Below, one piece after another: positions 23,980 through 44,651 of a stretch of 64,000 nucleotides of DNA. The position numbers and the translations under genes are program-made. The notes below the pieces were generated by a model, which was not told the DNA's origin, searched no databases, and saw nothing but the letters and a program-made list of their open reading frames with translations. Origin of the DNA: an uncultured Gammaproteobacteria bacterium (GTDB lineage Bacteria; Patescibacteriota; Microgenomatia; Daviesbacterales; UBA10151); NCBI GenBank assembly GCA_964524895.1, contig CAZGFG010000001.1, positions 54,936 to 118,935 on the forward strand. Reading direction: 5' to 3'. The first letter of the stretch is position 1. Each line of letters opens with the position of its first letter.

Positions 23980-23988
23980 GCAAAATAA

Positions 23989-29485: not shown

Positions 29486-30452
29486 ACCTGCCGAATTAGG
29501 AATGATCATGAAAAGAAAAAAAGTATCAATCGGTGTTATTTGTTTTAACGAAGAGGATAATGTTATTCCTGCTCATAACGAGCTTGCGAGAGTTACCAAT
29601 AAAAATCAAAGATATACCTATGAATTTATTTTTGTTGATAATGGTAGTACAGATAATACTAGAAAACAGATTAAAAAAATCTCTGAAAAAGATCATAGAG
29701 TTGTCGGTGTTTTTTTATCACGTAACTTCGGTCCTGAATCTTCGGGACAAGCAGCCATAGATTTTGCCTCCGGAGATGCATTTGTTATGTACGAAGGAGA
29801 TTTGCAGGACCCTCCAGACGTTATCTTGGATTTCATCAAGCAGTGGGAGAAAGGCTTTGAAGCGGTAGTTGGTATTCGAGAAAAAATAGATGATATTCTT
29901 CCAATGACAATAACCAGAAAGCTATACTATAAGGTATTTAAGACAATTTCTAATATCGATATCCCTGTAAATGCCGGAAGTTTTTGTTTATTAGACAAAA
30001 AGGTAGTAGAGGCAATGAAAGAACTACCCGAGAAATACAGATTCTTCAGGGGTTTAAGAGCTTGGGTAGGATTTAAAACTTCCTATATCACTTACGAACG
30101 TAGAAGAAGACAAAAGGGAAAAAGCTCTTATAATTTTTTTAGATATTTACATCTTGCTGAACGAAGTTTCTTTGGCTTCTCTTATTTACCATTAGATATT
30201 ATTGTCTATTTTAGTCTTCTTTTAGTGTCTCTCTCAATCATCTGGTTAGCATTATTATTGTCCTCATTCCTTCTATTCGGGCAAACTATAAAGGAATCTA
30301 CGTTGATTTTGTTTTCAGTTATCCTCTTTGGTGGAATTCAACTGCTTGCTTCAAGCATAATCGGAAAATATATACAAGTTATAACGGAGGAAACAAAAGC
30401 ACGTCCTGTATACATAGTAGAAAGGGTCTTAAGGAATGAAAAAAATAGATGA
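29463..30452 (+). CDS. ArnC/GtrB-like GT2 polyprenyl-phosphate sugar transferase with two C-terminal TM helices. The true start is probably the internal ATG at 29502 or 29508 (MIMKRKK).
   Basis: VSIGVICFNEED...FVDNGSTDNT, YEGDLQDPPDVI (ArnC: DADLQNPPEEI), and the C-terminus GKYIQVITEETKARPVYIVERV (ArnC: [22 protein letters not shown]). Confidence 0.75.
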   Translation: MEGLLVSKPAELGMIMKRKKVSIGVICFNEEDNVIPAHNELARVTNKNQRYTYEFIFVDNGSTDNTRKQIKKISEKDHRVVGVFLSRNFGPESSGQAAIDFASGDAFVMYEGDLQDPPDVILDFIKQWEKGFEAVVGIREKIDDILPMTITRKLYYKVFKTISNIDIPVNAGSFCLLDKKVVEAMKELPEKYRFFRGLRAWVGFKTSYITYERRRRQKGKSSYNFFRYLHLAERSFFGFSYLPLDIIVYFSLLLVSLSIIWLALLLSSFLLFGQTIKESTLILFSVILFGGIQLLASSIIGKYIQVITEETKARPVYIVERVLRNEKNR

Positions 30453-31656
30453 TCTCCGGGTAACATACGCTCAAGCTGTTCACGATGAAGTAGAGGAAAA
30501 AAGAGTTTTAAGGGTTTTACGTGAACATAGAACAATCATGGGGAAAGAGGTTTCTGAATTTGAAAGAAGAGTAGCAAAGAAATTCGGCAAAAAATATGGG
30601 GTTATGGTAAATTCCGGTTCTTCTGCCCTTACTATTGCCATCGAGTTAATGAACTTACCAGCAGGTAGTGAAGTAATTACACCTCTTCTTACTTTCTCTA
30701 CTACAGTGGCTTCCCTTCTCAGAGACGGACTAGTCCCTGTTTTCACCGATGTTGATCTTAGAAAATACACAATCGATATTTCTCAAGTTGAAAACCTTAT
30801 TACTAAAGAAACCAAGGCTTTGATGATTCCACTTCTTTTAGGAAATGTTCCTGATATAGTAAAACTTTCTCTGATTGCAAAAAAATATAATTTATTCCTT
30901 ATAGAAGATTCTTGCGATACCCTGGGAGCAACTATAAATAGAAAACCAACCGGTCGATTTTCTGATATTAGTGTAACAAGTTTTTACGGATCACATATTA
31001 TTACTGCAGGAGGCGGAGGAGGAATGTTGATGACAGATAGAGCTGCCTTCTATGATAAAGCAAGGGTGCTTCGGGGTTGGGGAAGAAGCTCGTCCCGCCT
31101 GAATGAATCCGAAGATTTTAATAAGCGTTTTAGCCAAAAACTTGATGGTATCCTCTATGATGCCAAATTTATATTTGACACAATTGGCTATAATTTTATG
31201 CCTTTGGAAATAGGGGCAGCATTTGGAAATGCCCAACTTGATAAATTAAATATATTTAAGAAAATTAGAACACGCAATTTTGAACATCTATATAATTTTT
31301 TCAAAAATTACGAAAATTTTTTCATACTTCCTCTGCAAGAAACAAACATTAAAACTCAATGGCTAGCTTTTCCCTTGGTTATTAAAACCCAGGCTCCTTT
31401 TTCCAGATTTCACCTGGTTAAATATTTAGAGGAGAGAAATATTCAGACTCGTCCTATTTTTACAGGTAATATTCTAAAACACCCTGGTTTTCATTCTATA
31501 CCTCACAAGAGATCAAAAGAAGGCTACCATGTTACGGACGAAATCATGAAGCAAGGATTTGTCATAGGTTGCCATCACGGCCTAACTCTAAAGCACTTAC
31601 AAAAAATTAAAGATGTCTTCAATAACTTCTTAAACAAGTATAATAGCTGGCGGTAA
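30436..31656 (+). CDS. DegT/DnrJ/EryC1-family PLP/PMP enzyme with the catalytic lysine replaced by histidine; predicted sugar-nucleotide 3-dehydrase (E1/ColD type) rather than an aminotransferase.
   Basis: Family blocks are present (VMVNSGSSAL, IEDSCDTLGA). At the Schiff-base position the sequence is TSFYGSHIITAGGGGG, i.e. H where aminotransferases have K (SFH..K....GEGG). This matches the SFY..HHIT.GEGG pattern I recall for E1/ColD. Confidence 0.7.
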   Translation: MKKIDDLRVTYAQAVHDEVEEKRVLRVLREHRTIMGKEVSEFERRVAKKFGKKYGVMVNSGSSALTIAIELMNLPAGSEVITPLLTFSTTVASLLRDGLVPVFTDVDLRKYTIDISQVENLITKETKALMIPLLLGNVPDIVKLSLIAKKYNLFLIEDSCDTLGATINRKPTGRFSDISVTSFYGSHIITAGGGGGMLMTDRAAFYDKARVLRGWGRSSSRLNESEDFNKRFSQKLDGILYDAKFIFDTIGYNFMPLEIGAAFGNAQLDKLNIFKKIRTRNFEHLYNFFKNYENFFILPLQETNIKTQWLAFPLVIKTQAPFSRFHLVKYLEERNIQTRPIFTGNILKHPGFHSIPHKRSKEGYHVTDEIMKQGFVIGCHHGLTLKHLQKIKDVFNNFLNKYNSWR

Positions 31657-31670
31657 ACTATCTCTATGGA

Positions 31671-33590
31671 TTAGTTACTAAATACTAATCTTTTTTTGAC
31701 TTCATCTGTGATATTTATTACTTTAGGTCCTTCAACTGCAAATGCATATAAATTCTCTAAACTAATAAATTTTCCATCTAAAGAATAGCCTTCACCATTA
31801 CGGATGCACCTCATTTCTTTATTCCCCTCATTCCTATATAGAAACTCCTTTGATCCATTCTGGACAGTAGCCATCTTTTGTAGTTCTAAAAAATCCCATG
31901 TTAAGGCAATACATGCATTAGTAGTATTGTTTGTTATATAACTCATTTCTATAGGCAACCAATATGTTAAGTTTCTCCAATCAAAAATATCCTCCCACTG
32001 ATTGGGAGCTTCTACTTCTTCTGTTTTAAACTTTATATAAATCAATAAATTACCATTCATTTTATCTTTTGAAATATAACTTAATGTTTGAGCCTTCATG
32101 GATTCTTGAATTTGTAACTCCCTACCGGAACTCTTTTTTCCATAAAAAAGCTGAGCGATTTCCGCTTGACTGATACTAAAAATCTGAAATATAACCACTA
32201 GTATTAGAAGTAATGCTAACAGTCTATTTATTCGCTTATTTCTTTGGTAAAGTAAAGTCAATATACTTGCTATAAAAAGATAGGAACCTATGGTTGAAAT
32301 AACAAAATACCTGTGTATACCTTCTTGATACATATAGTAATCCCTTGTAAAAAACCACTGCCCCAGGATAAACAGTAACGCGAAAAAGGGAGACAGAAGT
32401 GCAAAAAGTAGGAGAGTATTTTTCTTACCAGTTAAATACCATTCAATTCCGCAACTTATTGAAATAGAGATAATAAAGGCTGCTAAAATCCCAGAGTATA
32501 ATCCAGCATTAAAGGATGGCCCTGCATACCCAATGACAAGATGTTCAGGTATTCCAAAATGATGAGTATATAAAACAAAAATAATAACATCAAATATTAA
32601 ATTTATTAACATTGATATAGAAAAAAATCTGAATGGTTTATTAGATATAATAAAAGATAAAATAAGAGAAACTGCCCCAAAGATAATAAATGGTTTATAA
32701 ATTAAAGAGGAGATATAAGCAGACAGATTGGATATATTGATTGGTACAAGGATATTAAGAGATGCAGCCGGTAAAAATGTATAGCCTAGTCCCCATAATG
32801 GATTTAAAAGGAAGTACCAATTTCCGTTGGTAATTTTTTTAATAAAATCAGGCCAGCCTGCAGGACTATATGCATCTCCTCCAACATTTCCTAAACTATT
32901 CAAAGTAATAGTAATAATTGGCAAAAAGATCGCACTTAATCTTAAAACTGAAACAATAAAATTACACTTCTTATCTTTGATCAGAATAAATAACTCAACA
33001 AATAAAATAATTATAAATATAGGAAAGATGCGAATAGGAGATGCTAAATACCCAAACGTAACAATTAAAGATAGAAGCGATACGGTAATGATGGTTGGTT
33101 TTTTTACACAATAGTAATATACAATTAGAAACAGGAGCATTAATGCTACTCCCAAATATTCATTACCTACTACATAAAGGTATAGCGCTCCAGTAGATGG
33201 ATAGCTGAGGCCATATAGAAAAGTTCCCAAAAAGGAAAATAGCCTATTCTTAGTTAGAAGCAGAATGAGAGGATAGAGCAGCAAAGTGGCAACTATTTTA
33301 AAGAAAATGTTTGTATAAAGATACATTGTATAGTTTTTCCCATACAAACTATCTAAAAAACCTAAATAGAAGTCGTGTGTTGCGTTATGAATACCTACCT
33401 TTTTCCATGTACCTATGGGATCTGAGAACATTTGGTCTTTGCTAAATCTGATCTGATAAAAACCACCATAATCCTCATTGGTTAATCCTTGACCTACAAT
33501 TGGTTTCAATAAAATAAATTGGAAAAAAATAATTATTAGAACTAAAGCAGGAAATATAATAGGTCCTGAAAATATCTTAGTTAGCTGCAT
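31671..33590 (-). CDS. GT-C-like polytopic membrane glycosyltransferase paralogue (639 aa).
   Basis: Multi-TM protein with the family-conserved C-terminal tail (LYAFAVEGPKVINITDEVKKRL). It is first of three tandem paralogues. Confidence 0.6.
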   Translation of the reverse strand: MQLTKIFSGPIIFPALVLIIIFFQFILLKPIVGQGLTNEDYGGFYQIRFSKDQMFSDPIGTWKKVGIHNATHDFYLGFLDSLYGKNYTMYLYTNIFFKIVATLLLYPLILLLTKNRLFSFLGTFLYGLSYPSTGALYLYVVGNEYLGVALMLLFLIVYYYCVKKPTIITVSLLSLIVTFGYLASPIRIFPIFIIILFVELFILIKDKKCNFIVSVLRLSAIFLPIITITLNSLGNVGGDAYSPAGWPDFIKKITNGNWYFLLNPLWGLGYTFLPAASLNILVPINISNLSAYISSLIYKPFIIFGAVSLILSFIISNKPFRFFSISMLINLIFDVIIFVLYTHHFGIPEHLVIGYAGPSFNAGLYSGILAAFIISISISCGIEWYLTGKKNTLLLFALLSPFFALLFILGQWFFTRDYYMYQEGIHRYFVISTIGSYLFIASILTLLYQRNKRINRLLALLLILVVIFQIFSISQAEIAQLFYGKKSSGRELQIQESMKAQTLSYISKDKMNGNLLIYIKFKTEEVEAPNQWEDIFDWRNLTYWLPIEMSYITNNTTNACIALTWDFLELQKMATVQNGSKEFLYRNEGNKEMRCIRNGEGYSLDGKFISLENLYAFAVEGPKVINITDEVKKRLVFSN

Positions 33591-33616
33591 AGTTTTGTAA
33601 TAGTATATCCTATTTT

Positions 33617-35494
33617 TTACTGATTCAAAAGGTTAGCTTGATTAGAATATAGTTCTTGTAATATCTCTTTGGTATTTGGGACTAAGTTTCGACCCTTAAA
33701 TCTAAAGGCGTGAAAGTTTTCTTTCTTAAAAACATTTTCTCCACATTTAGTACTGACTATGGTTTCTCCATCTCCTAAGATAGCAACAAACCTTTCTAAT
33801 TCTTCTTTGCCTAAAATTTCAATATTACACAGCTGAAATCGTTTTTCTTTGGGGATATTCTCCTTTAAGTCAAACCAACTGGCTAACCTCCATATAATTA
33901 CTTGCTCATAATAAGCACCATTTTCGTTCTCCTCTGCCTGCCCAAAATAGATAAGTGGTAGGTTCTCTTTATTGTAATTTCTTGAAGTATTTATCTCTCT
34001 CCAGAATTGATTCCATACTCTTTGTTGATCTGTAGCTCTTAATCCGTGAAACAGCCAGTATGAAAAATATTCATCGATAGTACTGGAACTGATTTTAAAA
34101 TAAAATCCTATGAAAATAGCTACTAAAAGAAGGGGGATGGTTAAATTTACATCTATGTCTAATTTGATTCTTTCGAAAATAAGCACCAAAAGTATAGCGA
34201 TAACTATACTGGTTCCTATTGAGGGGATATTTAAATATGCATGCACACCCATAAAAATAGAGTTGAAGTCTGCAAAAACCCAGGTTAAAAAAATAAATAT
34301 AAACGATGAAGTTATGGCGATAAACGCTAGCGGCAAAAGATTGTTCTTTACGTTAGATTCTTTCCATTCCCAAAGGAATACTAGATTTAGAGAAACCATC
34401 ATAAGTCCAATTAATGCAGGGGTCATAAAAACTCCCGGGTCTACAGGAGCTCTGGTCATTTTGTCTAGATAAAGCCAGTTGTGAGCCAATAAATACGCAG
34501 CAAGACCTAGAATTATATTTAGTCCAAAACAGCGTATAAAAAACTTGAATGGTTTTTTGGAGATTAGTGCAGCTAAAAAACCATCGAATAAACTATATAA
34601 AAATAGTGGTCCTAAGAGAAAGTAAGAAAAAAAGGAGTAGAAGTCTTCGTAATTTGGTACTCCAAAAATTATCCAGAACTCCCTTGGTATATAGGTGCTT
34701 CCTAAGGACGCAAAAGGAGATAAGAAAAGTTGATAGTTTCCCTTACTCAGTATATCAAGTAAGGCAATTGGATATAGTAAAGACACAATTATCGATCTAG
34801 GTGAAAAAAGAAATAACAACAATAAAGGAGAATACAATATTAGTAACCTGGTGGTCGAAATTTTAAATTGATTTTTAAATTCGTTTCGAAACAAATTAAC
34901 CAGTTCAATTAAGGGAAGAATAATCATTAACGGAAAAAGCCGGGTAGGATCTATAACAATCGTTACCAACATCCATATCGAAAGGATAAGTATGGTTGTT
35001 AATCTGGATATATTCTTTTTAACTACATATATATATGTAGTTAAAAACAAATTCATTGATGCAATAGCTATAAAGTCTTCTCCTCTGGAAGCGTTATCTA
35101 GACTTCCAAAGGGAGAATAGTGGATAGAGAAAAACAATGTTGATAGAAATGCCAATAATCTACTCTTGGAAATGGTAAGGACTAAGGGATATAGGCTAAT
35201 AGATGCAATAATTTTTAAAAATTGATTAGTTACGGAATATAAAGAATAATTTAAGCCGAAAAAGTTATATAAGACCCCTATATAATAGGAATGAGGAAAC
35301 CAATGCGGCCCTAATTCTTTCCATGCAGAAAAAAAATCAAGAATAGGATTTTGAATATATGCTCGATATGCTGAGAGAAATAACCAATCATCAGTAAAAA
35401 AACCAAACTCTAAATGCTTTAATCCGAGGAGAAATTGTGTTATTGATGCAATAAAAGCAAGAATGCAAATAACCCTGAAGTCTTTTTTATTCAT
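33617..35494 (-). CDS. GT-C-like polytopic membrane glycosyltransferase paralogue (625 aa).
   Basis: FFTDDWLF motif after TM1, KSRLLAFL, NIPSIG and a C-terminal FHAFRFKGRNL tail. Confidence 0.6.
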   Translation of the reverse strand: MNKKDFRVICILAFIASITQFLLGLKHLEFGFFTDDWLFLSAYRAYIQNPILDFFSAWKELGPHWFPHSYYIGVLYNFFGLNYSLYSVTNQFLKIIASISLYPLVLTISKSRLLAFLSTLFFSIHYSPFGSLDNASRGEDFIAIASMNLFLTTYIYVVKKNISRLTTILILSIWMLVTIVIDPTRLFPLMIILPLIELVNLFRNEFKNQFKISTTRLLILYSPLLLLFLFSPRSIIVSLLYPIALLDILSKGNYQLFLSPFASLGSTYIPREFWIIFGVPNYEDFYSFFSYFLLGPLFLYSLFDGFLAALISKKPFKFFIRCFGLNIILGLAAYLLAHNWLYLDKMTRAPVDPGVFMTPALIGLMMVSLNLVFLWEWKESNVKNNLLPLAFIAITSSFIFIFLTWVFADFNSIFMGVHAYLNIPSIGTSIVIAILLVLIFERIKLDIDVNLTIPLLLVAIFIGFYFKISSSTIDEYFSYWLFHGLRATDQQRVWNQFWREINTSRNYNKENLPLIYFGQAEENENGAYYEQVIIWRLASWFDLKENIPKEKRFQLCNIEILGKEELERFVAILGDGETIVSTKCGENVFKKENFHAFRFKGRNLVPNTKEILQELYSNQANLLNQ

Positions 35495-35560
35495 TTCTCT
35501 TAATACTGGTTTTTAAGGAAAGGTAAAAACCAAGATTTGTAAGGTTTTATCATATAAGTA

Positions 35561-37438
35561 TTACTCATCTGCTTCAAGCTCTCTCAAAATTCGATCTTTA
35601 ATGTCTATTGGCTCTTTGTTTTTTAATCTAAAAGCATAAAAATCCTTTAAAGAATAGAAATGTGGCTTATAACAATAATCATAGAGGTAAAATCCTTTCT
35701 CCCCCTTTTTTGTCATGAATATCTCTTTTAACTGTTCCGGACGATTAATTATAAAAACAGGAAGACTACAGCTTCCTGGCTTATAGCTACCTTTAAAAAA
35801 CATCCAGTCAGAAAATCTGCCAAGGGTACTCATTTCATAGAACCTTCCGTTGAGATAGTCATCACTTGTATCAAAATAAAATAAGGTGGGGGTTGAGTTA
35901 TCAAAGCCTCCTAGTTTACTCCACACTCTGTCTCTCATCATCTCATGCTCCTTAGCGTCCATGCTATAACTGGTGATATCCCAGTTAGATTGAATTATTC
36001 TCTTATCCATATTGTAAATAGGTATCAGTAAAAGAAAGGTTAACAAAGCAATATTCTTACCTAAAACCCCAAAAACACTGATCTTTTTATACAGCAGTAC
36101 TAGAGTTCCTGCTATAAAGATGCTGCTTCCAATTGAGGGGATATTTAGATACGTATGAACTCCTTTAAACAAGACAGACCAATCCTTGAACATCCATGTA
36201 AAAAATATGAAATTACTAGAAAATAAACATCCTACCCATAAGGCTTGGTATAAATGATTATTTTTTCCAGAATCGTTCCATTCTCGCCAGATAAAGAAAG
36301 ATAACGACAGAATATAAATTGCTATGAAAACCGGGTAAAGTTCTATGTAGTCATAATGAACTTGAAGAGTTGATTGAAGTGTTTCTTGATGTTTAACTAA
36401 AACAAAAGCTATTAATTGGAAAAATATATTCGTTGACAAAATTCCGAAAAAGAAATTATATAGTCTTTTTTTAGGAACTGATAGAATAAAAACATAGAAA
36501 AGGGTTACTATTCCAAATATTGGTAAAGTATTGGTAAGCAGGTAACCGATATAATCAAAAATATTTTTAAGTTGAGGTGTGCCAAAAAATTTCCCATAGT
36601 CAGTTAAGAGAAAGATACTGCCCAATGACCCTAAAGGATAAAGTAATAATTGCCAGTTTCCTCTTAATATTTTATCGATGATCGCTGGAGCATTCAAGGT
36701 AAAACTAATTACTGATGAGGGAGAGACAAGAGTCAACACTAGATAAGGGAAAAAAAGAATCGTTAGTTTTTTAGATGTTTCCCAGGACACCTCTTTTGAT
36801 CTCCTTATAATAACTAAGTAGATCTCAATAAATAAAATGAAGGCTAGGAGGGGATATATTCTAATAGGGGAGAAGAGCATACTCATTAACAAAAGGATCA
36901 TTTGAAAAAAAAGCCACTTTCCCCCCCTTATTACTCCAATATGAAACAAGTAATAGGTAATTAAAAAGATACACATAAAAATTACAGCAATAAAATCACT
37001 CCCCCTTACAACCAACTCCAATGTCCCCACAGGAGAATAAGCCATTGCATATAAAACAACGGTAATAAAGGCTAGCAGCCGATTTTTAAAAACAATTAGC
37101 ACTAAAGGATAAACCATTAAAGCAGCCAGTCCCTTGAGGATCTGATTTATAACTTGGTACATTTGAAAATTAAAACCTAAGAACTGATGCAAAAAACTTA
37201 TGTATAGCGTCTGATAGGTGGTATATATACCCTGCTCCTTCCAAACTAATAAAAGCCCCATAAGTTTAAAGTGAGCAAGCGGCCACCAATCATCAGGAGT
37301 AAAACCATAGTTAAGTTGGGGTCTTAAAAGAACATATTGTAAGCCTGTTACTATAATTGTTAATAGGAAAAAAACCAATAAGTTCTTCTTATTCTTGATA
37401 AGAAAGTTTTTCAATGACTTAGTGGGAATATTGGTCAT
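35561..37438 (-). CDS. GT-C-like polytopic membrane glycosyltransferase paralogue (625 aa).
   Basis: FTPDDWWPL motif, KNRLLAFI, NIPSIG and a C-terminal FYAFRLKNKEPIDIKDRILRELE tail. Confidence 0.6.
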   Translation of the reverse strand: MTNIPTKSLKNFLIKNKKNLLVFFLLTIIVTGLQYVLLRPQLNYGFTPDDWWPLAHFKLMGLLLVWKEQGIYTTYQTLYISFLHQFLGFNFQMYQVINQILKGLAALMVYPLVLIVFKNRLLAFITVVLYAMAYSPVGTLELVVRGSDFIAVIFMCIFLITYYLFHIGVIRGGKWLFFQMILLLMSMLFSPIRIYPLLAFILFIEIYLVIIRRSKEVSWETSKKLTILFFPYLVLTLVSPSSVISFTLNAPAIIDKILRGNWQLLLYPLGSLGSIFLLTDYGKFFGTPQLKNIFDYIGYLLTNTLPIFGIVTLFYVFILSVPKKRLYNFFFGILSTNIFFQLIAFVLVKHQETLQSTLQVHYDYIELYPVFIAIYILSLSFFIWREWNDSGKNNHLYQALWVGCLFSSNFIFFTWMFKDWSVLFKGVHTYLNIPSIGSSIFIAGTLVLLYKKISVFGVLGKNIALLTFLLLIPIYNMDKRIIQSNWDITSYSMDAKEHEMMRDRVWSKLGGFDNSTPTLFYFDTSDDYLNGRFYEMSTLGRFSDWMFFKGSYKPGSCSLPVFIINRPEQLKEIFMTKKGEKGFYLYDYCYKPHFYSLKDFYAFRLKNKEPIDIKDRILRELEADE

Positions 37439-37444
37439 AACAAT

Positions 37445-38836
37445 CTAACAGCTATTGATATTATTAAAACGGCTATCTCTATCATAGTTACATTTAACAC
37501 GAGTAAACTCCCATACCCTATTATCAATTGCTTCCCGAATTACAAGATCTGGCTTGTATTGCTCAACTAATGATTGATCCAACTTAAACGATAGGTCATT
37601 ACGAATTATATTATCAAAACTAAGTCTGAAGAAATAATCCAGACCAATAGGTTCTGGATGTATACTTTGAATCATAAGATAGCTAATAATCCTGTCTTGA
37701 GTAACTTTATTGGGAATTTTTTCCCTGATAATTGATACTATATCTTCAAAATAATATTTAGGCAGCCAATATCCAGGATTTGGATCGATAAGTTTATCTG
37801 ATCCAGGCTCTGCAAACAATTGATAGGCCAAAGGGGCCATTTCAGGAAATGTATTAATAAGACATTTTACGCACACTCTTCTATCTATGTTTAAATATGA
37901 GTCTCCATATTCTAATATAGCCCCTAATTTAGGATGTTTATTAACAGAGTTATCTCTTATCTTAAATTTGACTCCGATTTCAGGCCGGCCAGGATTTTCG
38001 GGATAATTTAACCCGCCATCTCCCAACCACATCTCGTATTTTTCCAATGAGATATTAAAATCTTCTTCCGTGTATGTTTTTATTTTTTTAACCTTTGCTA
38101 ATCTAGTCATAATTTCTTTATAGGCCAGAAATGCACCATAGTTGGTCCAATGAGAGTCGGTTTTAAAGAATAAGGGGTATGATTTTTCGCTTTGGAGGAA
38201 GGCATCTGTTACATCAATAATCTCTAAAGATGTTTTTTCCTTCATATAATTAACAAACTGGTTGTGTCTTGCTATTGAAATCCGATCATCGAATTTTAGA
38301 GTATGGTTATAAACCACTCTCCTATCGGGAACGATCACAAGAAAATAAGGGATATTTTGTCTATCAAGGGATGCTTTTTCTCTCTCAAAAATTTCTTTAA
38401 AGCTATTTAGTTCATCTTGAGTATAAAAAATTCTTTGATAGATCCTTTTATAATCTTGTCCAGGCGCAAGTGCACCAAATATCATCCCTTGGTCATTAAA
38501 ATGAGTTTTAAAAACCTTGTTGGTCTTTAATAAATCTAGCTTTAAAACAAGATACTTCTTCAGAAAGATGTTTCTCAATCCAAAATTATCCAAGAAATAA
38601 GCATTTAACTCATTAATTACTGTATGCTCATAAAGATTAATCAAATGCGCGTTAAGACTGGTTTTAACCTCAGAAAGATTTTTAGGGTAATTAGAATTAA
38701 TCACGGGCAATTTTGCAGTTTCTCTCCTTTCTACCAGATCGTCAGCTGAAGTAACCCCTAGAAATTGACCAACGTAAATTGTTGTTATAACTAAAAAATA
38801 GCTAATCAAAAGAAAATAATTAAAAATGCTTTTCAT
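37445..38836 (-). CDS. AlgJ/AlgX/DltD-like periplasmic O-acyltransferase partner protein (DHHW/SGNH-like), N-terminally anchored.
   Basis: N-terminal TM or signal, then FFKTDSHWTNYGAF (the D-x-H-W motif of the AlgJ/AlgX family). It sits 3 nt downstream of the MBOAT gene. Confidence 0.6.
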   Translation of the reverse strand: MKSIFNYFLLISYFLVITTIYVGQFLGVTSADDLVERRETAKLPVINSNYPKNLSEVKTSLNAHLINLYEHTVINELNAYFLDNFGLRNIFLKKYLVLKLDLLKTNKVFKTHFNDQGMIFGALAPGQDYKRIYQRIFYTQDELNSFKEIFEREKASLDRQNIPYFLVIVPDRRVVYNHTLKFDDRISIARHNQFVNYMKEKTSLEIIDVTDAFLQSEKSYPLFFKTDSHWTNYGAFLAYKEIMTRLAKVKKIKTYTEEDFNISLEKYEMWLGDGGLNYPENPGRPEIGVKFKIRDNSVNKHPKLGAILEYGDSYLNIDRRVCVKCLINTFPEMAPLAYQLFAEPGSDKLIDPNPGYWLPKYYFEDIVSIIREKIPNKVTQDRIISYLMIQSIHPEPIGLDYFFRLSFDNIIRNDLSFKLDQSLVEQYKPDLVIREAIDNRVWEFTRVKCNYDRDSRFNNINSC

Positions 38837-38839
38837 GCT

Positions 38840-40249
38840 TTAGAAACGGAAATAGATGAATGATTGATATGTTTCTGCTGATATAAAGATAAGCGAAAGC
38901 AGAAATAAGAAAGTAAAGGCCAACAAGCGAAATACTTCACTTGGTATCACTGATATTTTTGTTCTCTTGATATATGTTAAAAACATGGAGAAAATTGGAG
39001 TTGCAAAGAAGAGTCCTAAAATTAGAGCTAAAATTATATCATTTCTGACAAAATAATCGGTCGAATAGTAAATCAAATCTTGGTTAAGATTATTAAACAT
39101 CAATTTAATAAAACCCGCTGACTCTGTTAGACTCTCACTTCTAAAAAATACCCAGCTTATTAATAACACCAAAAGGGTATAAACATGCTTGACTAATTTA
39201 GGCATCCAGTTAATGAAAAATCCTCCTTTTAGTCTTTCTAAAACAAGAAATATTCCATGGAATAAACCCCAAGCTATAAAGGTCCAGTTTGCACCATGCC
39301 ATAGTCCTGTTAAAGCAAATACTAAGATAATATTTCTAAAGGTTACAATCTCGCCTTTTCTATTACCCCCCAATGGTATATAGACATAATCTTTAAACCA
39401 ATTATACAATGTCATATGCCATCTTCTCCAAAAGTCTATAATACTTGTTGCTGTATATGGATAGTTGAAGTTTTCCGGGAACTTAAAGCCGAAGATCATC
39501 CCTAGGCCAATTGCCATGTCAGTATAACCCGAGAAGTCATAATATATTTGTAGTGCAAAACAAATTACTGCAATCCAAATTTGCTCTATGGATACATGTG
39601 CAGGACCGATACTGAAAACTTCATCTGCTACCGGGGCTAGAGTGTTTGCAATAATTACCTTTTTAGATAATCCGATCATAAATCTATATAATCCTTGTGA
39701 GACCATCTGCCAGTCAATTGCTCTTTTTATAAGCTTTTTTGCCACTTGGTGGTATCTGATAATAGGACCAGCAATTAGATGTGGAAAGAGAGTAAAATAA
39801 AGGACCAATCTTGCCAAATTTTTTTCCGGCTTATTAACCCCTTTAAATACGTCTATATTGTATGAAATTGCATGGAAAGTAAAAAAAGATATTGCTAAAG
39901 GTAAATAGATATTAAAAGTTTTGTTATCTATCCCTACAATATTTAAATTGCCAAATATAAAATTGGTATATTTAAAGTAAGCTAAAACTCCTAAATTTAA
40001 GATTATTGCTAAGATCAAAGATGCCCGTTTCGAATCTTTCTTCTCCTGCATCGAAATTGCAAGAGAAGTAAAAAAATTTAGTATAATCCAAAGATATATT
40101 AACAGAACATATAACCCCTCGCCCCAAAAATAAAACAAACCACTAGCTATAATTAATAAAATATTCCTCTTATCTTCCCGTAGAAAAAAATACAGAACAA
40201 GTACCAGTGGGAAAAAGTATAACAAAAAAACCGGACTAGTAAAATTCAT
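38840..40249 (-). CDS. MBOAT-family membrane-bound O-acyltransferase (AlgI/DltB-like).
   Basis: Polytopic protein with IDFWRRWHMTLYNWFKDYVYIPLGGNRKG (the MBOAT WRRWH / catalytic His region) and a downstream conserved H (GLWHGANW). Confidence 0.85.
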   Translation of the reverse strand: MNFTSPVFLLYFFPLVLVLYFFLREDKRNILLIIASGLFYFWGEGLYVLLIYLWIILNFFTSLAISMQEKKDSKRASLILAIILNLGVLAYFKYTNFIFGNLNIVGIDNKTFNIYLPLAISFFTFHAISYNIDVFKGVNKPEKNLARLVLYFTLFPHLIAGPIIRYHQVAKKLIKRAIDWQMVSQGLYRFMIGLSKKVIIANTLAPVADEVFSIGPAHVSIEQIWIAVICFALQIYYDFSGYTDMAIGLGMIFGFKFPENFNYPYTATSIIDFWRRWHMTLYNWFKDYVYIPLGGNRKGEIVTFRNIILVFALTGLWHGANWTFIAWGLFHGIFLVLERLKGGFFINWMPKLVKHVYTLLVLLISWVFFRSESLTESAGFIKLMFNNLNQDLIYYSTDYFVRNDIILALILGLFFATPIFSMFLTYIKRTKISVIPSEVFRLLAFTFLFLLSLIFISAETYQSFIYFRF

Positions 40250-41876
40250 TTTTAACTCTATTTATCTTAATCTTGGCCAGCTCCTCTCGTACCATCTCTG
40301 TTATTTCAACCAGCCGATTTTTTCCTTCTAGCTTGAAGGCATACACATTTTCAATTGGAATTGGTGCTTGAGGGAAATCAAATGGCGCCAATGAACTGCC
40401 ATCTGTTACGGCCGATACGACTTGTTCCCAACCATCCAGAGGAACTGGCATCTTAGAAAAATCATCTAAATTATAAGCTAACGCCATATGTACAGGAAAA
40501 CCGAATGTCAGTGCTCCATAAAGAATTTGTCTATTCTCCCCTGTGAAATAAAAGACCTGCGCTTCTCCACTCTTCCCAATTTCCGAGATTAAAGGAAGTT
40601 GTTCCCAAACTTTTTCTGTAATTTCAACACCATGCAAATTGTCTACTTGATACTGTAAGTAGTTTCTTGAAGAATAAATGTTTAATATAAGAAACAGCGA
40701 AACGAAAAGAACACCTAATATCGTAAATTTTCTTTTTATTCTACTTATAAGAATCGCTATAAAAATGGTTAGTCCGGATGCTGAGACTATTAGATAACGA
40801 TGAAAAAAGGGTAGTAAAGTTAATGGATCTTTAAGCCAAGCGAAAATAAATGCACATATTAACCAGCAAAAAGCTAAAAAGAATCCAGTCGAAATTAGAT
40901 AGTTGCTACGATTTTTATAGATCAGCCTTAAGGCAAAAAGGATAAAGAATATCCCTACCCAAAGCATTATTCTTTGATCAACCATCTGATAGTCAAGAGG
41001 TATTAACATATTACCGATAATAATAAGCGGGTACAGAATAAAATCTGTACTTCCTTTATTCAGCAAGGCTCCAGACGAAGCTAATCCCCCTTTCCATACT
41101 CCGGTTAGCTGATCTATCGGACCAAAAAGGGAATATCCCGAACGCCCACCAAATTCGGAGACTATCTGACCAAATATGACTAGAATAATAAATAAACTTA
41201 TAAAACCACTCAACCGGATTATTAACAACTTTAGATTTTTTAACTGAAAAAATCTAAAGAAAAAGAATAATTCCATTAATAGGACAAGGGGTACTGCACC
41301 AGTCATTCTGACTGAGGCAGTAAACATCGCCAGAACCAAAAACAATAGGCTAATCACATAAAAACGCGGGTTGTAGTCTTTTTCATGAGCCTTCACAAAA
41401 TAAAGGAGGAAAAAATTGAATAAAGCTATGGCAATATAAACTGGCATATTAAAAACCCAATTAGTAGCATCAAGACCTACGGCAGTTACAGAAAAAAATA
41501 AAACAGCCAATACAGCAGAAACTTTATTCTTAGTTAAATAATAAACAAGCGGATAAAAAGATAGAGCTGCAATCAACCTTAGAATATAAGCTGTAATATA
41601 GTAGTAAAGAGATTTAAAACCCACTATCTCTGCTATCAAACCCATTATTAACTCAAACGAGCCGTACCTGGTTAAAAAATACGTTAAGTAGTTTAAAGCT
41701 CCATGGGAAACAGGACCAATGGTATAGAAATATCTCCATAACGCTAGCCAATCATCTCCATAAAGTCCTAATTGAAAGCTTGGATAAAGTGCAAATAAAC
41801 TGAAGGGCACCAGAATTAGAAAAATGAAAATTAGATTCTTTCCTTTAGTCATTATTTTTAAAATCTTTAACAGCAA
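40236..41876 (-). CDS. GT-C-like polytopic membrane glycosyltransferase paralogue (546 aa).
   Basis: LYGDDWLALW motif after TM1, the family NIP... region and a C-terminal VYAFKLEGKNRLVEITEMVREEL tail. It overlaps the upstream methyltransferase by 32 nt. Confidence 0.6.
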   Translation of the reverse strand: MLLKILKIMTKGKNLIFIFLILVPFSLFALYPSFQLGLYGDDWLALWRYFYTIGPVSHGALNYLTYFLTRYGSFELIMGLIAEIVGFKSLYYYITAYILRLIAALSFYPLVYYLTKNKVSAVLAVLFFSVTAVGLDATNWVFNMPVYIAIALFNFFLLYFVKAHEKDYNPRFYVISLLFLVLAMFTASVRMTGAVPLVLLMELFFFFRFFQLKNLKLLIIRLSGFISLFIILVIFGQIVSEFGGRSGYSLFGPIDQLTGVWKGGLASSGALLNKGSTDFILYPLIIIGNMLIPLDYQMVDQRIMLWVGIFFILFALRLIYKNRSNYLISTGFFLAFCWLICAFIFAWLKDPLTLLPFFHRYLIVSASGLTIFIAILISRIKRKFTILGVLFVSLFLILNIYSSRNYLQYQVDNLHGVEITEKVWEQLPLISEIGKSGEAQVFYFTGENRQILYGALTFGFPVHMALAYNLDDFSKMPVPLDGWEQVVSAVTDGSSLAPFDFPQAPIPIENVYAFKLEGKNRLVEITEMVREELAKIKINRVKNEFY

Positions 41877-42474
41877 TCAATCCACCGCTTATTTCAGGGA
41901 AAAAATAACTAAAAGGGGTAAAAAGGTAATAAAGCGCCTGTTTTAATTTAATAAAACGGTCCCCCCAAAGCAATGGGATTTTTACTCCGATTCCATAAAC
42001 CCTATACCCACGTGACCTGAAATCTTTAATAGTCCAGAGTGACTTATGTTCATCCTCTTCTTCACCTTCTATGGTTTTGAAAAACATATTCGGGGTGGAG
42101 ATAATAGCCCTTCCGCGGCAAACTCTATCTATCCCTTTTAACAACTTCAATCCATCACTTCTGTTTAGATGTTCAATAACCTCTATACATAAAATAAGAT
42201 CGACGCTTTTATTTTTTAAGGGAATAGTCGGTAATCTGTGTTTAATAATACGGTCATAGGTATTATGCTCCATACAAGATTTTATATATTTTTCGTTTAT
42301 CTCTATTCCTAATAATTTAGTGTCCTTTAAGTCTCTACTTCCATGTAGAAGACAACCGTTTAATCCTCTACCACAACCAACATCTAAAACTGTTTTATTA
42401 GCTATAATAGGGGTAAAATATGATATAAACGGGTGATAAAAAAATGGGTGTGTCCCAGACGGTATGTTATTCAT
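41845..42474 (-). CDS. Class I SAM-dependent methyltransferase (209 aa), paralogue of 11544..12176.
   Basis: VLDVGCGRGLNG, VDLILCIEVIEHLNRSDGLKLL, ISTPN. Confidence 0.8.
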   Translation of the reverse strand: MNNIPSGTHPFFYHPFISYFTPIIANKTVLDVGCGRGLNGCLLHGSRDLKDTKLLGIEINEKYIKSCMEHNTYDRIIKHRLPTIPLKNKSVDLILCIEVIEHLNRSDGLKLLKGIDRVCRGRAIISTPNMFFKTIEGEEEDEHKSLWTIKDFRSRGYRVYGIGVKIPLLWGDRFIKLKQALYYLFTPFSYFFPEISGGLIAVKDFKNND

Positions 42475-42492
42475 AAGTTATAGTTTTAGAAA

Positions 42493-43500
42493 TTAATTTA
42501 GTTTTTTTCTCCAATTCTCTGGTAAAAGTTGGCTATCAATTTCAATTTCAGTATAAATAGGATTTTGTACCCCTTGTGATTTTACATATTCCCATGTTTT
42601 TTTTAAACCCTCATTAATAGAGGTTCTATCTTTATATCCTAAATATTTTTTTGCTAAACTATGGCTTGAAATAGCAATCTTTACCTCTTGGGGTCTATTT
42701 TTAATGTATTTTGGCTTTATTTTGAGACCAGAAATATTTTGTACTATGTCAGAAAGTTCATTAATAGAATGATCTTTATCTGATCCGATATTAAATATCA
42801 TGCCATTGGCGTTTAAAAATCCACATTTTATAATTGCATCGACTACATCACTAATGTAGGAAAAGCATCTTCGCTGTCTCCCATCCCCATAAATAAAATA
42901 AGGTTCGCCCTTAAGAAGAGCACTCATAAAAATAGTAACTACATTTCGATAGGGGTCTGACATATTTTGACCAGGTCCATACACATTATGAGGTCTAGTA
43001 ATTACATATTCAAAATTATGGACACTGCTTAATATCTTAAGCGATTGCTCTACAGCAAGTTTCCCCACTCCATATATATCTTCTGGTTCAGGTCTATCTG
43101 ACTCTTTAAAAGGTGCCCGAATAGATCCATAAACAGCAATGCTAGATGTAAATACGAATCTCTTCATACCATTATTTAAAGCAGGAACAAGAGTATTTAT
43201 GAAGGTATTATATGTTCTAGTAGAAATATCTATTGGTGAGAATTGGGCCTTATTCTCAGCAGCATTTGCTGCTAAATGGTAAATAATCTCCGGCTTTATA
43301 ACCTTGATTATTTCTTCTGCTTTTTTTCTATCTCTCAAATCACAAAGATAAAATTTAGAGTTAGGGTTTAGATTTTTTTTACTACCACCTGATAAATCGT
43401 CTATATTAAAGACATTATGACCTTCACTTATTAATTTATTTATTAAATGACTTCCAATGAATCCCGCTCCCCCAGTCACTAGAATGTTTCTTTTTTTCAT
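42493..43500 (-). CDS. NAD-dependent epimerase/dehydratase (UDP-sugar 4-epimerase/decarboxylase-like extended SDR).
   Basis: ILVTGGAGFIGSHL and YGVGKLAVE (YxxxK). 335 aa. First gene of the ~12 kb minus operon. Confidence 0.8.
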   Translation of the reverse strand: MKKRNILVTGGAGFIGSHLINKLISEGHNVFNIDDLSGGSKKNLNPNSKFYLCDLRDRKKAEEIIKVIKPEIIYHLAANAAENKAQFSPIDISTRTYNTFINTLVPALNNGMKRFVFTSSIAVYGSIRAPFKESDRPEPEDIYGVGKLAVEQSLKILSSVHNFEYVITRPHNVYGPGQNMSDPYRNVVTIFMSALLKGEPYFIYGDGRQRRCFSYISDVVDAIIKCGFLNANGMIFNIGSDKDHSINELSDIVQNISGLKIKPKYIKNRPQEVKIAISSHSLAKKYLGYKDRTSINEGLKKTWEYVKSQGVQNPIYTEIEIDSQLLPENWRKKLN

Positions 43501-43628
43501 ATTTATGTATTAATTAACCACAGCTATCTTATTCAGAAACTAACCTTTTTTCAATATTTAAAATCTCCACTATATTTTCATCTATATATGATATTACTAT
43601 TATATATGTTAAACTTTTTTAAACTTTT

Positions 43629-44651
43629 ATGAGGTGGCCTTTAGTCTCAGTGGTAATGTCGAATTACAACGGAGTAACGTTGAATCTATTAAATGATTCT
43701 CTCCCTCCAATTCTAAAAAACTCTTATCCAAACTTAGAGGTAATTTTAGTAGATAATGCCTCAACTGACAACAGCGTAGATTATATAAAAAATAAATTTG
43801 GTAAGAATCCCCGTCTAAAGATTATTCAAAATCATATTAATATGTACAGTATAGGACTGAATTTAGGAGTAAAGAACTCCTCCGGCAAATATGTAGCTTT
43901 TTTCAACAATGATGTTGTCGTAGAGGATGATTATTTTCAAAAAATAATTACTTTTTTAGAAAAAAATTCTGATATTGCATTAGCTCAAGGGAAATTAGTG
44001 TCATATTATAATAAAAAAATAATTGATAGCGCAGGGGAAACAATGGATTACTTCGGGAATCCTATAACTATAGGGTCAGGTCAGAATGCAAAGGAGAGTT
44101 ACAACCAAATTATGGAAATATTATCTGTTAGTGGCTCGTGCTCAATTTTACGAAAGTCTGTAATTTCCAAGGTTGGATATTTTGACGATGACTATGGTAT
44201 TGGATATGAAGATATGGATCTGTCCTTAAGAGCATGGCTTAGGGGGTATCGGGTAGTTTATTCCCCTGATGCTATAGCTTTTCATAAAAGGGCTGCTACA
44301 GACCTCTCCCCAATGGTTAGAGCAATCGTTAGGTGGCATTTCAACAAAAATAGGCTAGCTACAATGATTAAAAATTATCCCCTTACCGATCTTATTACCT
44401 GTCTACCTGTTACAATAATTATTTATATTTTTGCAGGATTATGGGAAATATTATTGAAAAAGAATTATCAAGTAGGAATAACTCGATTCTCTGCAATTAT
44501 ATGGGCCATTGATCACCTACCTAATATAATTAGAAAAAGGGGCTTAGCCAGAAACGGAATTAACAATAGCAATTTTGAAATAATTCGTAAACTTTTGTTT
44601 AAAAAGATATTATTCCAAAGCTTTTTGTCTTTTCTTAAAATCAAAAATTAA
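43629..44651 (+). CDS. GT2 glycosyltransferase with a C-terminal membrane segment.
   Basis: VSVVMSNYNG...EVILVDNASTDNS and YEDMDL. Hydrophobic C-terminal region (LPVTIIIYIFAGLW). Confidence 0.75.
   Translation: MRWPLVSVVMSNYNGVTLNLLNDSLPPILKNSYPNLEVILVDNASTDNSVDYIKNKFGKNPRLKIIQNHINMYSIGLNLGVKNSSGKYVAFFNNDVVVEDDYFQKIITFLEKNSDIALAQGKLVSYYNKKIIDSAGETMDYFGNPITIGSGQNAKESYNQIMEILSVSGSCSILRKSVISKVGYFDDDYGIGYEDMDLSLRAWLRGYRVVYSPDAIAFHKRAATDLSPMVRAIVRWHFNKNRLATMIKNYPLTDLITCLPVTIIIYIFAGLWEILLKKNYQVGITRFSAIIWAIDHLPNIIRKRGLARNGINNSNFEIIRKLLFKKILFQSFLSFLKIKN

Follow-up and report, generated by a model that had tools for sequence, protein, structure and literature searches.

GT-C enzymes are classed into families by sequence, and the structural class closest to the proteins described here is GT-C_A, with ArnT (GT83), PMT (GT39), PglB-STT3 (GT66), ALG9-ALG12 (GT22), AftD and DPY19. 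This class is defined by a conserved module of seven transmembrane (TM) helices and a luminal loop 1, the first helix of which bears the catalytic base (PMC13503287). Families recognisable just by fold prediction keep appearing, for example GT136 in 2024 (PMC11127046). In three-component systems (GtrA/GtrB/GtrC of Shigella and Salmonella phages; CsbB/GtcA/YfhO; the GT136 pentofuranose system, PMC11127046), a GT2 enzyme makes a polyprenyl-phosphate monosaccharide and a GT-C enzyme modifies a finished glycan outside the cell; with a different GT-C enzyme, a different structure results. Mycobacteria encode several diverged GT-C paralogues per genome, partly in tandem (embCAB); each Emb or Aft enzyme uses a polyprenyl-phosphate sugar for a distinct wall-polymer linkage, and these enzymes carry extracytoplasmic C-terminal domains.

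Candidate-phyla-radiation bacteria have small genomes, and to our knowledge their envelope glycobiology is essentially unexplored. Glycosylation processes are likewise called "unexplored" in a paper on Saccharibacteria (PMC11623550), and our full-text literature searches found no paper pairing Patescibacteria with GT-C. Here we describe a locus with an array of paralogues which, with a probability of about 0.78, are GT-C_A glycosyltransferases using polyprenyl-phosphate sugars outside the cell. The family would offer a first handle on surface glycan synthesis in the candidate phyla radiation.

Paralogues and their relatives

The 64-kb stretch that we analysed (the window) is a glycan-biosynthesis island according to Pfam scans, which showed no phage genes; no tRNA or Rfam family was found in it. 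The sequence-only reading had proposed five membrane-protein paralogues, and all five minus-strand ORFs were confirmed at precisely the proposed coordinates (Table 1). By sequence comparison they are true paralogues, their similarity being far above chance both in BLASTP and against profiles that exclude window sequences. BLASTP links the four long copies to one another (A-D 4.5e-95, C-D 4.7e-80, A-C 7.4e-74, B-D 8.5e-56, A-B 5.5e-31); A scores 3.1e-192 against the profile without window sequences, and B, the most divergent of the four, has a profile score of 1.8e-173. Paralogue E matches the other four by BLASTP at just 1e-5 to 2.5e-8, but scores 3.4e-27 against the profile without E; with a profile built from 155 relatives outside the window its score is 5.5e-101. 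It represents a short subfamily whose variable module is some 70 residues, or two TM helices, shorter, which leaves 11 TM helices. An alternative start for E is the ATG eight codons downstream of the TTG.

Table 1. Positions of the features discussed in the text
Feature	Position	Strand	Length	Description
Distant sixth member	6151..7656	+	501 aa	FSQDDFFHFK after TM1; shorter C-terminus
Soluble GT2	14834..15574	-	246 aa	No TM helix; Pfam Glycos_transf_2; candidate polyprenyl-phosphate-sugar synthase
Paralogue A	15567..17498	-	643 aa	Membrane protein of predicted GT-C fold; post-TM1 motif RDIDW
Membrane GT2	29463..30452	+	329 aa	ArnC/GtrB/PgfS architecture; second candidate polyprenyl-phosphate-sugar synthase
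Paralogue B	31671..33590	-	639 aa	Ends the tandem triplet; motif TNEDY
Paralogue C	33617..35494	-	625 aa	Middle of the triplet; motif FTDDWLF
Paralogue D	35561..37438	-	625 aa	First of the triplet; copy used for the structure model
Codons D49-D50-W51 of paralogue D	37286..37294	-		Acidic-aromatic motif; D50 is the proposed catalytic base
AlgX/DHHW-like SGNH protein	37445..38836	-	463 aa	Membrane-anchored; Pfam ALGX 6.2e-16, DHHW 2.6e-6
MBOAT-family membrane O-acyltransferase	38840..40249	-	469 aa	Between E and D; Pfam MBOAT 3e-27
Paralogue E	40236..41876	-	546 aa	TTG start
Class I methyltransferase	41845..42474	-		Second gene of the string; Pfam Methyltransf_11 2.3e-11
NAD-dependent epimerase/dehydratase	42493..43500	-		Starts the minus-strand string; Pfam Epimerase 1e-47

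The count of five stands for the close paralogues but overlooked a distant sixth member on the plus strand. This protein aligns with the family in hhalign (E 9.4e-5, probability 59%, 203 columns from EL1 to TM7), matches paralogue A in BLASTP at 2.3e-5 and reaches 2e-11, with high compositional bias, against a profile of non-window members; it has no match in Pfam or NCBIfam. The span 31671..41876 also holds two genes outside the family, encoding the SGNH protein and the MBOAT.

How old is the array? Copy number varies across related genomes, as the sequence-only reading had proposed to check, with 2 to 7 tandem family copies in related Patescibacteria MAGs. In the tree, paralogues C, D, A and E fall together with copies found in other genomes. 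Among seven other loci (L001-L007), orthologues of A occur in L001, L005, L006 and L007 (46-50% identity), C forms a clade with the L005 and L006 copies (35-36% identity), E falls in a separate clade with L002, L003 and L005 copies (identity up to 40%), and B has its own long branch beside the L003/L004 copies. Because each window paralogue has its own orthologue clade, the tree marks the expansion as ancient. Recent local duplication was rejected as the origin of the triplet, since B, C and D are just 27-31% identical to one another and C, D, A and E cluster with copies from elsewhere. The proposal that tandem expansion diversified specificity thus holds in part: it fits ancient subfamilies and a divergent C-terminal domain, but not a recent local amplification. 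Acceptor or donor specificity may have diversified among the paralogues; identity is lowest in the C-terminal domain (22% versus 30-33% elsewhere beyond TM1).

Sequence searches link the five paralogues to no characterised enzyme. Pfam and NCBIfam returned no family at E<=1, PDB profile searches with 5-sequence and 83-sequence alignments gave no match, and hhalign of E. coli ArnT against the family gave 1.2% probability. Pfam scans of 77 relatives produced sporadic weak matches just to PMT_2 (3/77 members, best 6.3e-5), Glucos_trans_II (GtrII; a single member, E 0.0093) and DUF7657, the first two of which are faint sequence echoes of the GT-C clan. A second protein search, run with a profile of 77 sequences, brought hardly anything beyond membrane-plus-TPR proteins with matches to about 20% of the query. 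At E<=1e-30 the family counts 266 representative clusters in a library of 1.84 billion representative proteins, and at E<=1e-10 it counts 480; the genome scan for relatives was run with a 13-sequence alignment.

Several known families were tried and set aside. The GtrC-like membership that had been proposed was not borne out, the five window proteins having no Glucos_trans_II match at E<=1, and the paralogues resemble Gtr systems in their logic rather than by family. None of the five matches the ArnT/PMT families (PMT, PMT_2; GT83/GT39) at the gathering threshold. YfhO, PgfM and MmpA were likewise not returned for them by NCBIfam or Pfam at E<=1. Membership of STT3/PglB/AglB (GT66) was rejected on the lack of an STT3 Pfam match, of a WWD motif in the C-terminal 130 residues and of an OST-like C-domain fold. 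WaaL, Wzy and SEDS-type polymerases or ligases are absent from the structural matches, which have GT-C_A enzymes at the top. The paralogues thus probably form an uncatalogued sequence family within a known enzyme class, the GT-C_A-fold membrane glycosyltransferases, in Patescibacteria, with catalysis proposed from the predicted fold. One characterised member would probably found a new CAZy family; even if the proteins prove ordinary, several hundred "hypothetical protein" clusters gain a clean annotation.

Predicted fold, topology and conserved residues

The fold was assigned from a predicted, not solved, structure of paralogue D. The model has 13 TM helices with the N-terminus inside: between TM1 (17-43) and TM2-TM7 lie the loop helices 48-60, 62-69 and 71-87, and an extracytoplasmic alpha/beta domain occupies approximately residues 494-625. 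This modelled layout matches the published GT-C_A definition, with a helical first extracytoplasmic loop carrying a conserved acidic residue in its first helix and an N-terminal 7-TM module that superposes on solved GT-C structures. The top-ranking structural matches are GT-C_A enzymes, and the best of them are active enzymes with 334-383 residues aligned; a placement in a non-glycosyltransferase membrane family, which would have spoken against the sequence-only reading, did not emerge from the model. The C-terminal domain (about 130 residues) found no fold relative in the structure comparison.

On which side of the membrane does the active-site loop lie? Among 160 members, K+R make up 25.6% of predicted cytoplasmic loops versus 6.4% of extracytoplasmic loops, and the N-terminus is basic. 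Two cysteines of the C-terminal domain (Cys557/Cys589) covary, both being present in 104 and both absent in 55 of the 160 sequences, with one sequence having a single cysteine. Because of the K+R bias and the covarying pair, loop 1 and the C-terminal domain are predicted to lie outside the cell, and the motif after TM1 on the outer rather than the cytoplasmic face. The predicted architecture comprises 13 TM helices (11 in E), an N-terminus in the cytoplasm and, outside the cell, an alpha/beta domain with a disulfide bond. The [FY]AF segment near the C-terminus, earlier taken for an amphipathic tail, is modelled as a beta-strand (E600-606) of this folded domain.

An alignment of the five paralogues gives the post-TM1 motif as FTDDWLF (C), TPDDWWPL (D), YGDDWLAL (E), RDIDWMM (A) and TNEDYGG (B). 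The DDW described as common to all five is therefore found in C, D and E but not in A or B, and the second Asp is the sole motif residue invariant in all five. In the numbering of paralogue D, D50 is conserved in 151/160 relatives (94%), W51 in 128 (80%) and D49 in 108 (68%). The acidic site in outer loop 1 stands; its hallmark is a single conserved Asp plus an aromatic residue, not a DD pair. In the model the motif stands at the N-terminus of helix 48-60, and we propose D50 as the catalytic base. Other residues conserved across the 160 relatives are R193 (99%), E205 (94%), Y430 (99%), W415 (89%) and P268 (96%), and the topology model places all of these, with D50, on the outer half. Two further blocks described as shared, KNRLLAFL and NIPSIG.S, are present in A, C and D, but both are degenerate in B and E (for the latter block VISTIGSY in B and IVSASGLT in E); the truly conserved residue near NIPSIG.S is the preceding Tyr, Y430.

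The gene neighbourhood beside known systems

Two GT2 enzymes are candidate suppliers of a lipid-linked sugar donor. NCBIfam scores of the soluble GT2 are AglJ 2.1e-16, PpgS 1.8e-13, dolichyl-phosphate hexose transferase 2.8e-11 and PgfS 3.2e-8, the strongest four of five and all below curated equivalog cut-offs. The 3' end of paralogue A overlaps this downstream gene by 8 nt, and its homologues adjoin a family member, or lie about 1 kb from one, in five of the seven loci: L001 (80% identity), L003, L004, L006 and L007. The membrane GT2 has two C-terminal TM helices (246-264 and 282-300), matches PgfS (6.4e-65) and ArnC (1.6e-33) in NCBIfam, both below cut-off, and has homologues in L005 and L007 at 66-68% identity. 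Its gene is convergent with the triplet. From this GT2 neighbourhood we infer that the family uses a polyisoprenyl-phosphate-linked sugar donor.

The epimerase and methyltransferase genes are joined to the minus-strand string by gene overlaps and short gaps. The MBOAT gene (NCBIfam DltB 9.6e-44, below cut-off) belongs to the same tightly packed string, overlapping paralogue E by 14 nt and lying 3 nt from the next gene. That gene encodes the SGNH protein, which has a single N-terminal TM helix and is likely the extracytoplasmic partner of the MBOAT; paralogue D follows after a gap of 6 nt. In L001-L007 the MBOAT/SGNH pair is not a conserved neighbour of the family. No excess over shuffled sequence was seen when 31400..43800 was scanned for promoters and terminators (56 versus 54.9 and 10 versus 7.0), and the scan was uninformative on operon boundaries.

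The window follows the logic of the three-component systems, and GT136 likewise has a GT-C enzyme recognisable by predicted fold alone. Unlike the Gtr-type systems, however, the family belongs to neither GtrC nor YfhO, is not phage-borne, and has many GT-C copies per synthase in the window instead of one. GtrB-like GT2 genes are present, but a search of the window for flippase genes of the GtrA, SMR and MATE types found none; the gaps between its genes are too small to hide a GtrA-like gene, save for a 106-aa membrane ORF (7735..8055) with no Pfam match and no similarity to ArnF.

Remote homologues of proteins of the lipid A aminoarabinose pathway Arn (PmrHFIJKLM; E. coli, Salmonella) also occur in the window: ArnB (30436..31656, 3.8e-19), ArnC (the membrane GT2; 26% identity and E 5e-32 in full-length BLASTP against the E. 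coli protein), the C-terminal dehydrogenase domain of ArnA (the epimerase, an SDR protein, 1.5e-16), its formyltransferase domain (62990..63733, 5.8e-10), ArnD (62166..62993, 3e-17) and Ugd (50206..51606). By analogy, the GT-C paralogues would fill the ArnT step. The differences from Arn are identities of just about 25%, genes spread over 35 kb instead of a single operon, no ArnE/F found in the window, and a family profile that fails to align with ArnT. The window ORFs that were scanned include no lipid A biosynthesis gene, so a lipid A acceptor is without support here.

Proposed mechanism and rival explanations

What would the paralogues do? The cytoplasmic enzymes of the island would produce nucleotide sugars, the two GT2 synthases would load single sugars onto a polyprenyl phosphate carrier, and the lipid-linked sugar would be flipped across the membrane. 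Each paralogue may then move the sugar to an outer-face acceptor, with D50 as catalytic base and R193, Y430 and E205 holding the phosphate leaving group on the outer side. Acceptor choice would lie with the variable TM module and the divergent C-terminal domain, so that different paralogues would attach different sugars or linkages to a glycopolymer or glycoprotein of the cell surface; the MBOAT and SGNH pair could O-acylate the product.

The same fold and chemistry could instead serve builders rather than decorators, each copy making one linkage in the stepwise assembly, outside the cell and from polyprenyl-phosphate monosaccharides, of a cell-wall glycan backbone and its branches, like mycobacterial EmbA/B/C and AftA-D. 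The diverged, partly tandem paralogues and extracytoplasmic C-terminal domains are shared with those enzymes; Emb and AftD proteins, in contrast, are much larger, carry carbohydrate-binding modules and have no sequence relation to the family, and the window lacks their donor pathway genes (DPPR synthase, DprE1/2). We regard such a role as possible but somewhat unlikely. Protein O-glycosylation of the PMT/TMTC type, in which each paralogue would move single polyprenyl-phosphate-linked sugars to Ser/Thr of its own class of proteins, secreted or at the surface (S-layer, pilins, large adhesins), appears doubtful.

Transfer of a whole polyprenyl-diphosphate-linked oligosaccharide to protein or another acceptor, as by PglB and STT3, is most improbable: the sole WW of the modelled paralogue lies inside loop 1 (DDWWPL) and the C-terminal domain is devoid of a WWDXG-type motif; this domain has about 130 residues versus more than 250 in oligosaccharyltransferases, and no fold relative; the adjacent GT2 enzymes are of the monosaccharide-phosphate-lipid type; and five to seven oligosaccharyltransferase paralogues in a single array would be unprecedented. 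It is also very unlikely that these are non-catalytic GT-C-fold proteins for lipid or glycolipid handling, scaffolding or transport (compare PIG-U/GAB1 and MmpA-type delivery proteins). The 94-99% conservation of the acidic residue at the catalytic-base position and of the outer-face Arg, Tyr and Glu argues against this, as do the consistent adjacency to polyprenyl-phosphate-sugar synthase-like GT2 genes and the long alignments with active enzymes.

With GT-C_A glycosyltransferases as the preferred reading, a broader and rather speculative picture, which we hold to be unlikely as it stands, is that Daviesbacteria/Microgenomates-type Patescibacteria build or diversify their surface glycan largely outside the cell with a combinatorial, lineage-specific GT-C toolkit. 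This family in its 2-7-copy arrays, together with a second, AftD-like family, would draw on a small number of polyprenyl-phosphate-sugar synthases, one of which would provide an Arn-like amino sugar, and surface identity for host attachment and phage evasion would be set as paralogues are gained, lost and shuffled between strains. Cultivated relatives of these reduced-genome bacteria are episymbionts (PMC11623550). Counting the second family, ten GT-C-like genes lie within the 64-kb island, which makes up more than 40% of the 150,770-bp contig.

Paralogy and predicted fold of the membrane proteins

The five genes that a sequence-only reading had proposed as paralogues (A–E) all lie exactly where it placed them, on the minus strand. 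Their products can be aligned across their full length, and A–D are related to one another by BLASTP E-values of 5.5e-31 to 4.5e-95. E matches A–D far more weakly (1e-5 to 2.5e-8), and it scored 3.4e-27 against a profile built without it and 5.5e-101 against a profile of 155 relatives from outside the window only. Thus, the paralogy is real and includes E. A sixth, distant member had been missed, and the span 31671-41876, described as holding the expanded family, also holds two non-family genes encoding an AlgX/DHHW-like SGNH protein and an MBOAT protein.

Features of the window, with coordinates
Feature	Coordinates	Strand	Remarks
A	15567..17498	-	643 aa
B	31671..33590	-	639 aa
C	33617..35494	-	625 aa
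D	35561..37438	-	625 aa; modelled copy
E	40236..41876	-	546 aa; TTG start, in-frame ATG 8 codons downstream
Sixth family member	6151..7656	+	distant
ArnC-like GT2	29463..30452	+	329 aa; E 5e-32 vs E. coli ArnC
Soluble GT2	14834..15574		246 aa
ArnB-like aminotransferase	30436..31656	+	3.8e-19
SDR like ArnA C-domain	42493..43500	-	1.5e-16
UDP-glucose dehydrogenase	50206..51606	-	Arn-type pathway homologue
ArnD-like deformylase/deacetylase	62166..62993	+	E 3e-17 vs E. coli ArnD
Formyltransferase	62990..63733	+	ArnA N-domain 5.8e-10
NodU/CmcH-type carbamoyltransferase	47682..49487	-	Carbam_trans_N + Carbam_trans_C
NodU/CmcH-type carbamoyltransferase	53312..55051	-	Carbam_trans_N + Carbam_trans_C
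Unusual sugar-pathway block	21590..27960		
Charged soluble protein	18774..19664	-	296 aa; 47 K+R, 38 D+E
Second family	3..3167	-	runs off window
Second family	3157..5940	-	
Second family	8039..11536	-	
Second family	45281..47503	+	
Small membrane ORF	7735..8055	-	106 aa; 3-4 hydrophobic helices

What class of protein do these genes encode? None of A–E matched Pfam or NCBIfam, PDB sequence-profile searches with 5-sequence and 83-sequence alignments returned no match, and comparison of the family profile with E. coli ArnT (hhalign) was null. Among 77 diverse relatives, only three matched PMT_2 weakly and one matched Glucos_trans_II weakly (Pfam). By sequence, the family lies outside the GT-C families tested, namely PMT/PMT_2, STT3, Glucos_trans_II and those modelled in NCBIfam.

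We modelled D with AlphaFold2 from a 36-sequence alignment, without templates, and obtained a mean pLDDT of 91.1 and a pTM of 0.90. The structural matches to this model were ALG12 (score 14.2), STT3B (13.8), Pmt2 and PglB (13.3), Pmt4 and ALG9 (12.4), ArnT (11.2), AglB (11.1), Pmt1, AftA and AftB (10.3), AftD (9.6) and DPY19 (8.7). Most of these GT-C matches aligned over 334-383 residues at 3.9-5.3 Å with 8-14% identity; the first unrelated match, a HEAT-repeat protein, aligned over 139 residues at 20 Å. Foldseek concurred, with PglB, STT3, ArnT, DPY19 and Pmt4 at probabilities of 0.95-1.0. GT-C_A enzymes combine a conserved seven-helix N-terminal module with a variable C-terminal module and carry helices in the first luminal loop, the first of which bears the catalytic base (PMC13503287). 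The layout of the model matches this definition: TM1 (residues 17-43) is followed by loop helices (48-60, 62-69 and 71-87), TM2-TM7 make up the rest of the conserved module, and then come a long helical extracytoplasmic loop (239-292), six further TM helices and a C-terminal alpha/beta domain (494-625). The C-terminal [FY]AF segment, which had been read as an amphipathic tail, is a beta-strand of this folded domain.

The motifs ascribed to the family are present but less regular than claimed: after TM1, A carries DIDW and B carries NEDY as the acidic-aromatic motif, and only the other three proteins have DDW. In the model, D49-D50-W51 stands at the N-terminus of helix 48-60. Across a 160-sequence alignment, D50, the second Asp of the motif, is conserved at 94%, its Trp at 80% and its first Asp at 68%; with D50, the top conserved positions are R193 and Y430 (99% each), P268 (96%) and E205 (94%). 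To assign topology, we took loops from the model of D and counted charges over 160 family members: the K+R content is 25.6% in predicted cytoplasmic loops versus 6.4% in predicted extracytoplasmic ones. TM2 is followed by a short cytoplasmic turn made of the KNR in the 'KNRLLAFL' block, and the N-terminus is basic. Cys557 and Cys589 of the C-terminal domain occur together in 104 sequences and are jointly missing from 55, with only 1 sequence having one without the other, as expected of a disulfide and hence of an extracytoplasmic domain. The charge bias and the cysteine pattern thus predict the acidic motif on the outer side of the membrane and not on its cytoplasmic face. Neither outcome that the sequence-only reading had named as refuting it, a cytoplasmic motif or a non-glycosyltransferase family, was seen.

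The GT-C interpretation is therefore backed by fold, topology and context, and A–E are probably GT-C_A enzymes by predicted fold and mechanism. As predicted members of a well-known enzyme class, they make up a sequence family that had not been catalogued before, is not categorically new and has expanded within a poorly studied bacterial lineage. GT136, a GT-C recognisable by fold only, founded a new CAZy family (PMC11127046).

Glycan genes of the window and putative sugar donors

The entire window is a glycan-biosynthesis island. It encodes five GT2 and two GT4 transferases, a nucleotidyl transferase, several SDR epimerases/dehydratases, an RmlD-like reductase, a DegT aminotransferase, a NeuB-like synthase, a UDP-glucose dehydrogenase, a UDP-GlcNAc 2-epimerase, methyltransferases, two carbamoyltransferases, a deacetylase and a formyltransferase. 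A tightly packed minus-strand string (overlaps or gaps <=66 nt) runs from 43500 to 31671 in the order SDR, methyltransferase, E, MBOAT, SGNH protein, D, C, B. In 31400..43800, consensus promoters (56 versus 54.9) and terminators (10 versus 7.0) were not enriched relative to shuffled sequence.

Two of the GT2 enzymes resemble synthases of lipid-linked monosaccharide donors. The ArnC-like enzyme ends in two TM helices, shares 26% identity with E. coli ArnC over its full length and is most similar in NCBIfam to PgfS and ArnC. The soluble one, whose gene overlaps the end of the A gene by 8 nt, has AglJ, PpgS, dolichyl-phosphate hexose transferase and PgfS as its four strongest similarities, all below equivalog cut-offs; its homologues adjoin a family member, or lie about 1 kb away, in five of seven related genomic loci. 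Remote homologues of the Arn-type aminoarabinose pathway are scattered in the window, suggesting that one lipid-linked donor may be an amino sugar that is formylated and then deformylated.

The carbamoyltransferase pair brackets the UDP-glucose dehydrogenase and a glutamine-dependent NAD synthase, and hints that glycan sugars are O-carbamoylated. The unusual sugar-pathway block encodes the NeuB-like synthase, a 3-dehydroquinate-synthase-like cyclase, an FGGY kinase, a HAD phosphatase and a three-domain thiamine-diphosphate enzyme. The highly charged soluble protein, without a match in Pfam or NCBIfam, is encoded between a GT4 gene and divergent sugar-nucleotide genes.

A second paralogous family, unrelated to A–E, comprises large GT-C-looking membrane proteins of 740 to 1165 aa with 11-13 N-terminal TM helices, a loop of ~60 residues after TM1 and a large soluble region at the C-terminus. 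The protein starting at 45281 shares 40% identity with that at 8039 (E 4e-146), which the truncated one at 3 also matches (4e-50); the latter weakly matches Pfam GT-C_AftD (E 0.011) and the protein at 3157 weakly matches NCBIfam MmpA. With its four members and six of the A–E family, the 64 kb hold ten GT-C-like genes.

Proposed mechanism and alternatives

How might A–E act? In the scheme we infer, nucleotide sugars would be produced in the cytoplasm, moved onto polyprenyl phosphate by the ArnC/PgfS-like and PpgS/AglJ-like GT2 enzymes and then flipped across the membrane as lipid-linked sugars. At the outer face, each GT-C paralogue would add its sugar at one specific site on a surface glycopolymer or glycoprotein, with D50 acting as base and R193, Y430 and E205 lying around the phosphate. 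AlgI/AlgX, PatA/PatB and DltB/DltD are acylation pairs, and by analogy the MBOAT and SGNH proteins of the string would O-acylate the same product. The logic resembles that of three-component extracytoplasmic glycosylation systems (reviewed in PMC11127046). Unlike these, the A–E loci have no recognisable flippase gene nearby and contain many diverged GT-C copies, and the family has a distinctive C-terminal domain. No flippase was identified; the window's only candidate for a small flippase-type membrane protein is the small membrane ORF, which shares 17 nt with the end of the 1165-aa GT-C-like gene and shows no Pfam match and no ArnF similarity.

The alternatives differ chiefly in acceptor or mode of action. 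A–E could conceivably assemble a polymer stepwise in the manner of Emb/Aft enzymes, a reading we hold to be doubtful, and it is less probable still that they O-glycosylate proteins as PMTs do. Transfer of oligosaccharides en bloc is unlikely because the WWDXG motif is absent and the C-domain is small, and the conserved acidic and basic residues likewise make a non-catalytic role of the GT-C-like fold unlikely.

Distribution and divergence of the family

Searching 1.84 billion representative proteins with a family profile gave 480 clusters at E<=1e-10, 266 of them at E<=1e-30, with a typical length of 580-650 aa. Where sources are named, the family comes from Candidatus Daviesbacteria and unclassified Patescibacteria MAGs, and it also occurs in three TPA MAG assemblies labelled 'uncultured Gammaproteobacteria' (loci L001, CAZFYQ010000005.1; L003, CAZYPW010000009.1; L006, CAYLXC010000002.1). 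These loci have gene content in common with the window and with the Daviesbacteria/Patescibacteria MAGs, and L001 is syntenic with the window, one neighbouring gene reaching 80% protein identity. The Gammaproteobacteria label of these assemblies is probably wrong.

Copy number, which the sequence-only reading had proposed to compare, varies from 2 to 7, and all seven related loci hold multiple copies: seven within 14.6 kb in L003, five each in L006 and L007, four in L005, three in L004 (at a contig end) and two each in L001 and L002. In a neighbour-joining tree, A, C, D and E fall in separate clades, each with copies from other genomes; B stands alone on a long branch next to L003 and L004 copies, and E belongs to a distinct short subfamily. 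Thus, the B-C-D triplet is a cluster of old subfamilies, and a recent amplification is rejected. Gene order varies between genomes, the D orthologue of L001 lying between the A orthologue and the GT2.

Beyond TM1, A–D differ most from one another in the C-terminal domain (22% mean identity versus 30-33% elsewhere). In ALG3, ALG9 and ALG12 the acceptor is held mainly by the variable module (PMC13503287), and the divergence fits, but does not prove, differing acceptor choice. Seven distant profile relatives (P0203, P0204, P0206, P0209-P0211 and P0213; E 1.5e-15 to 9e-5) match the N-terminal membrane part only and have TPR repeats at the C-terminus, replacing the alpha/beta domain, an architecture that recalls TMTC-type GT-C plus TPR proteins and suggests C-terminal domain swapping.
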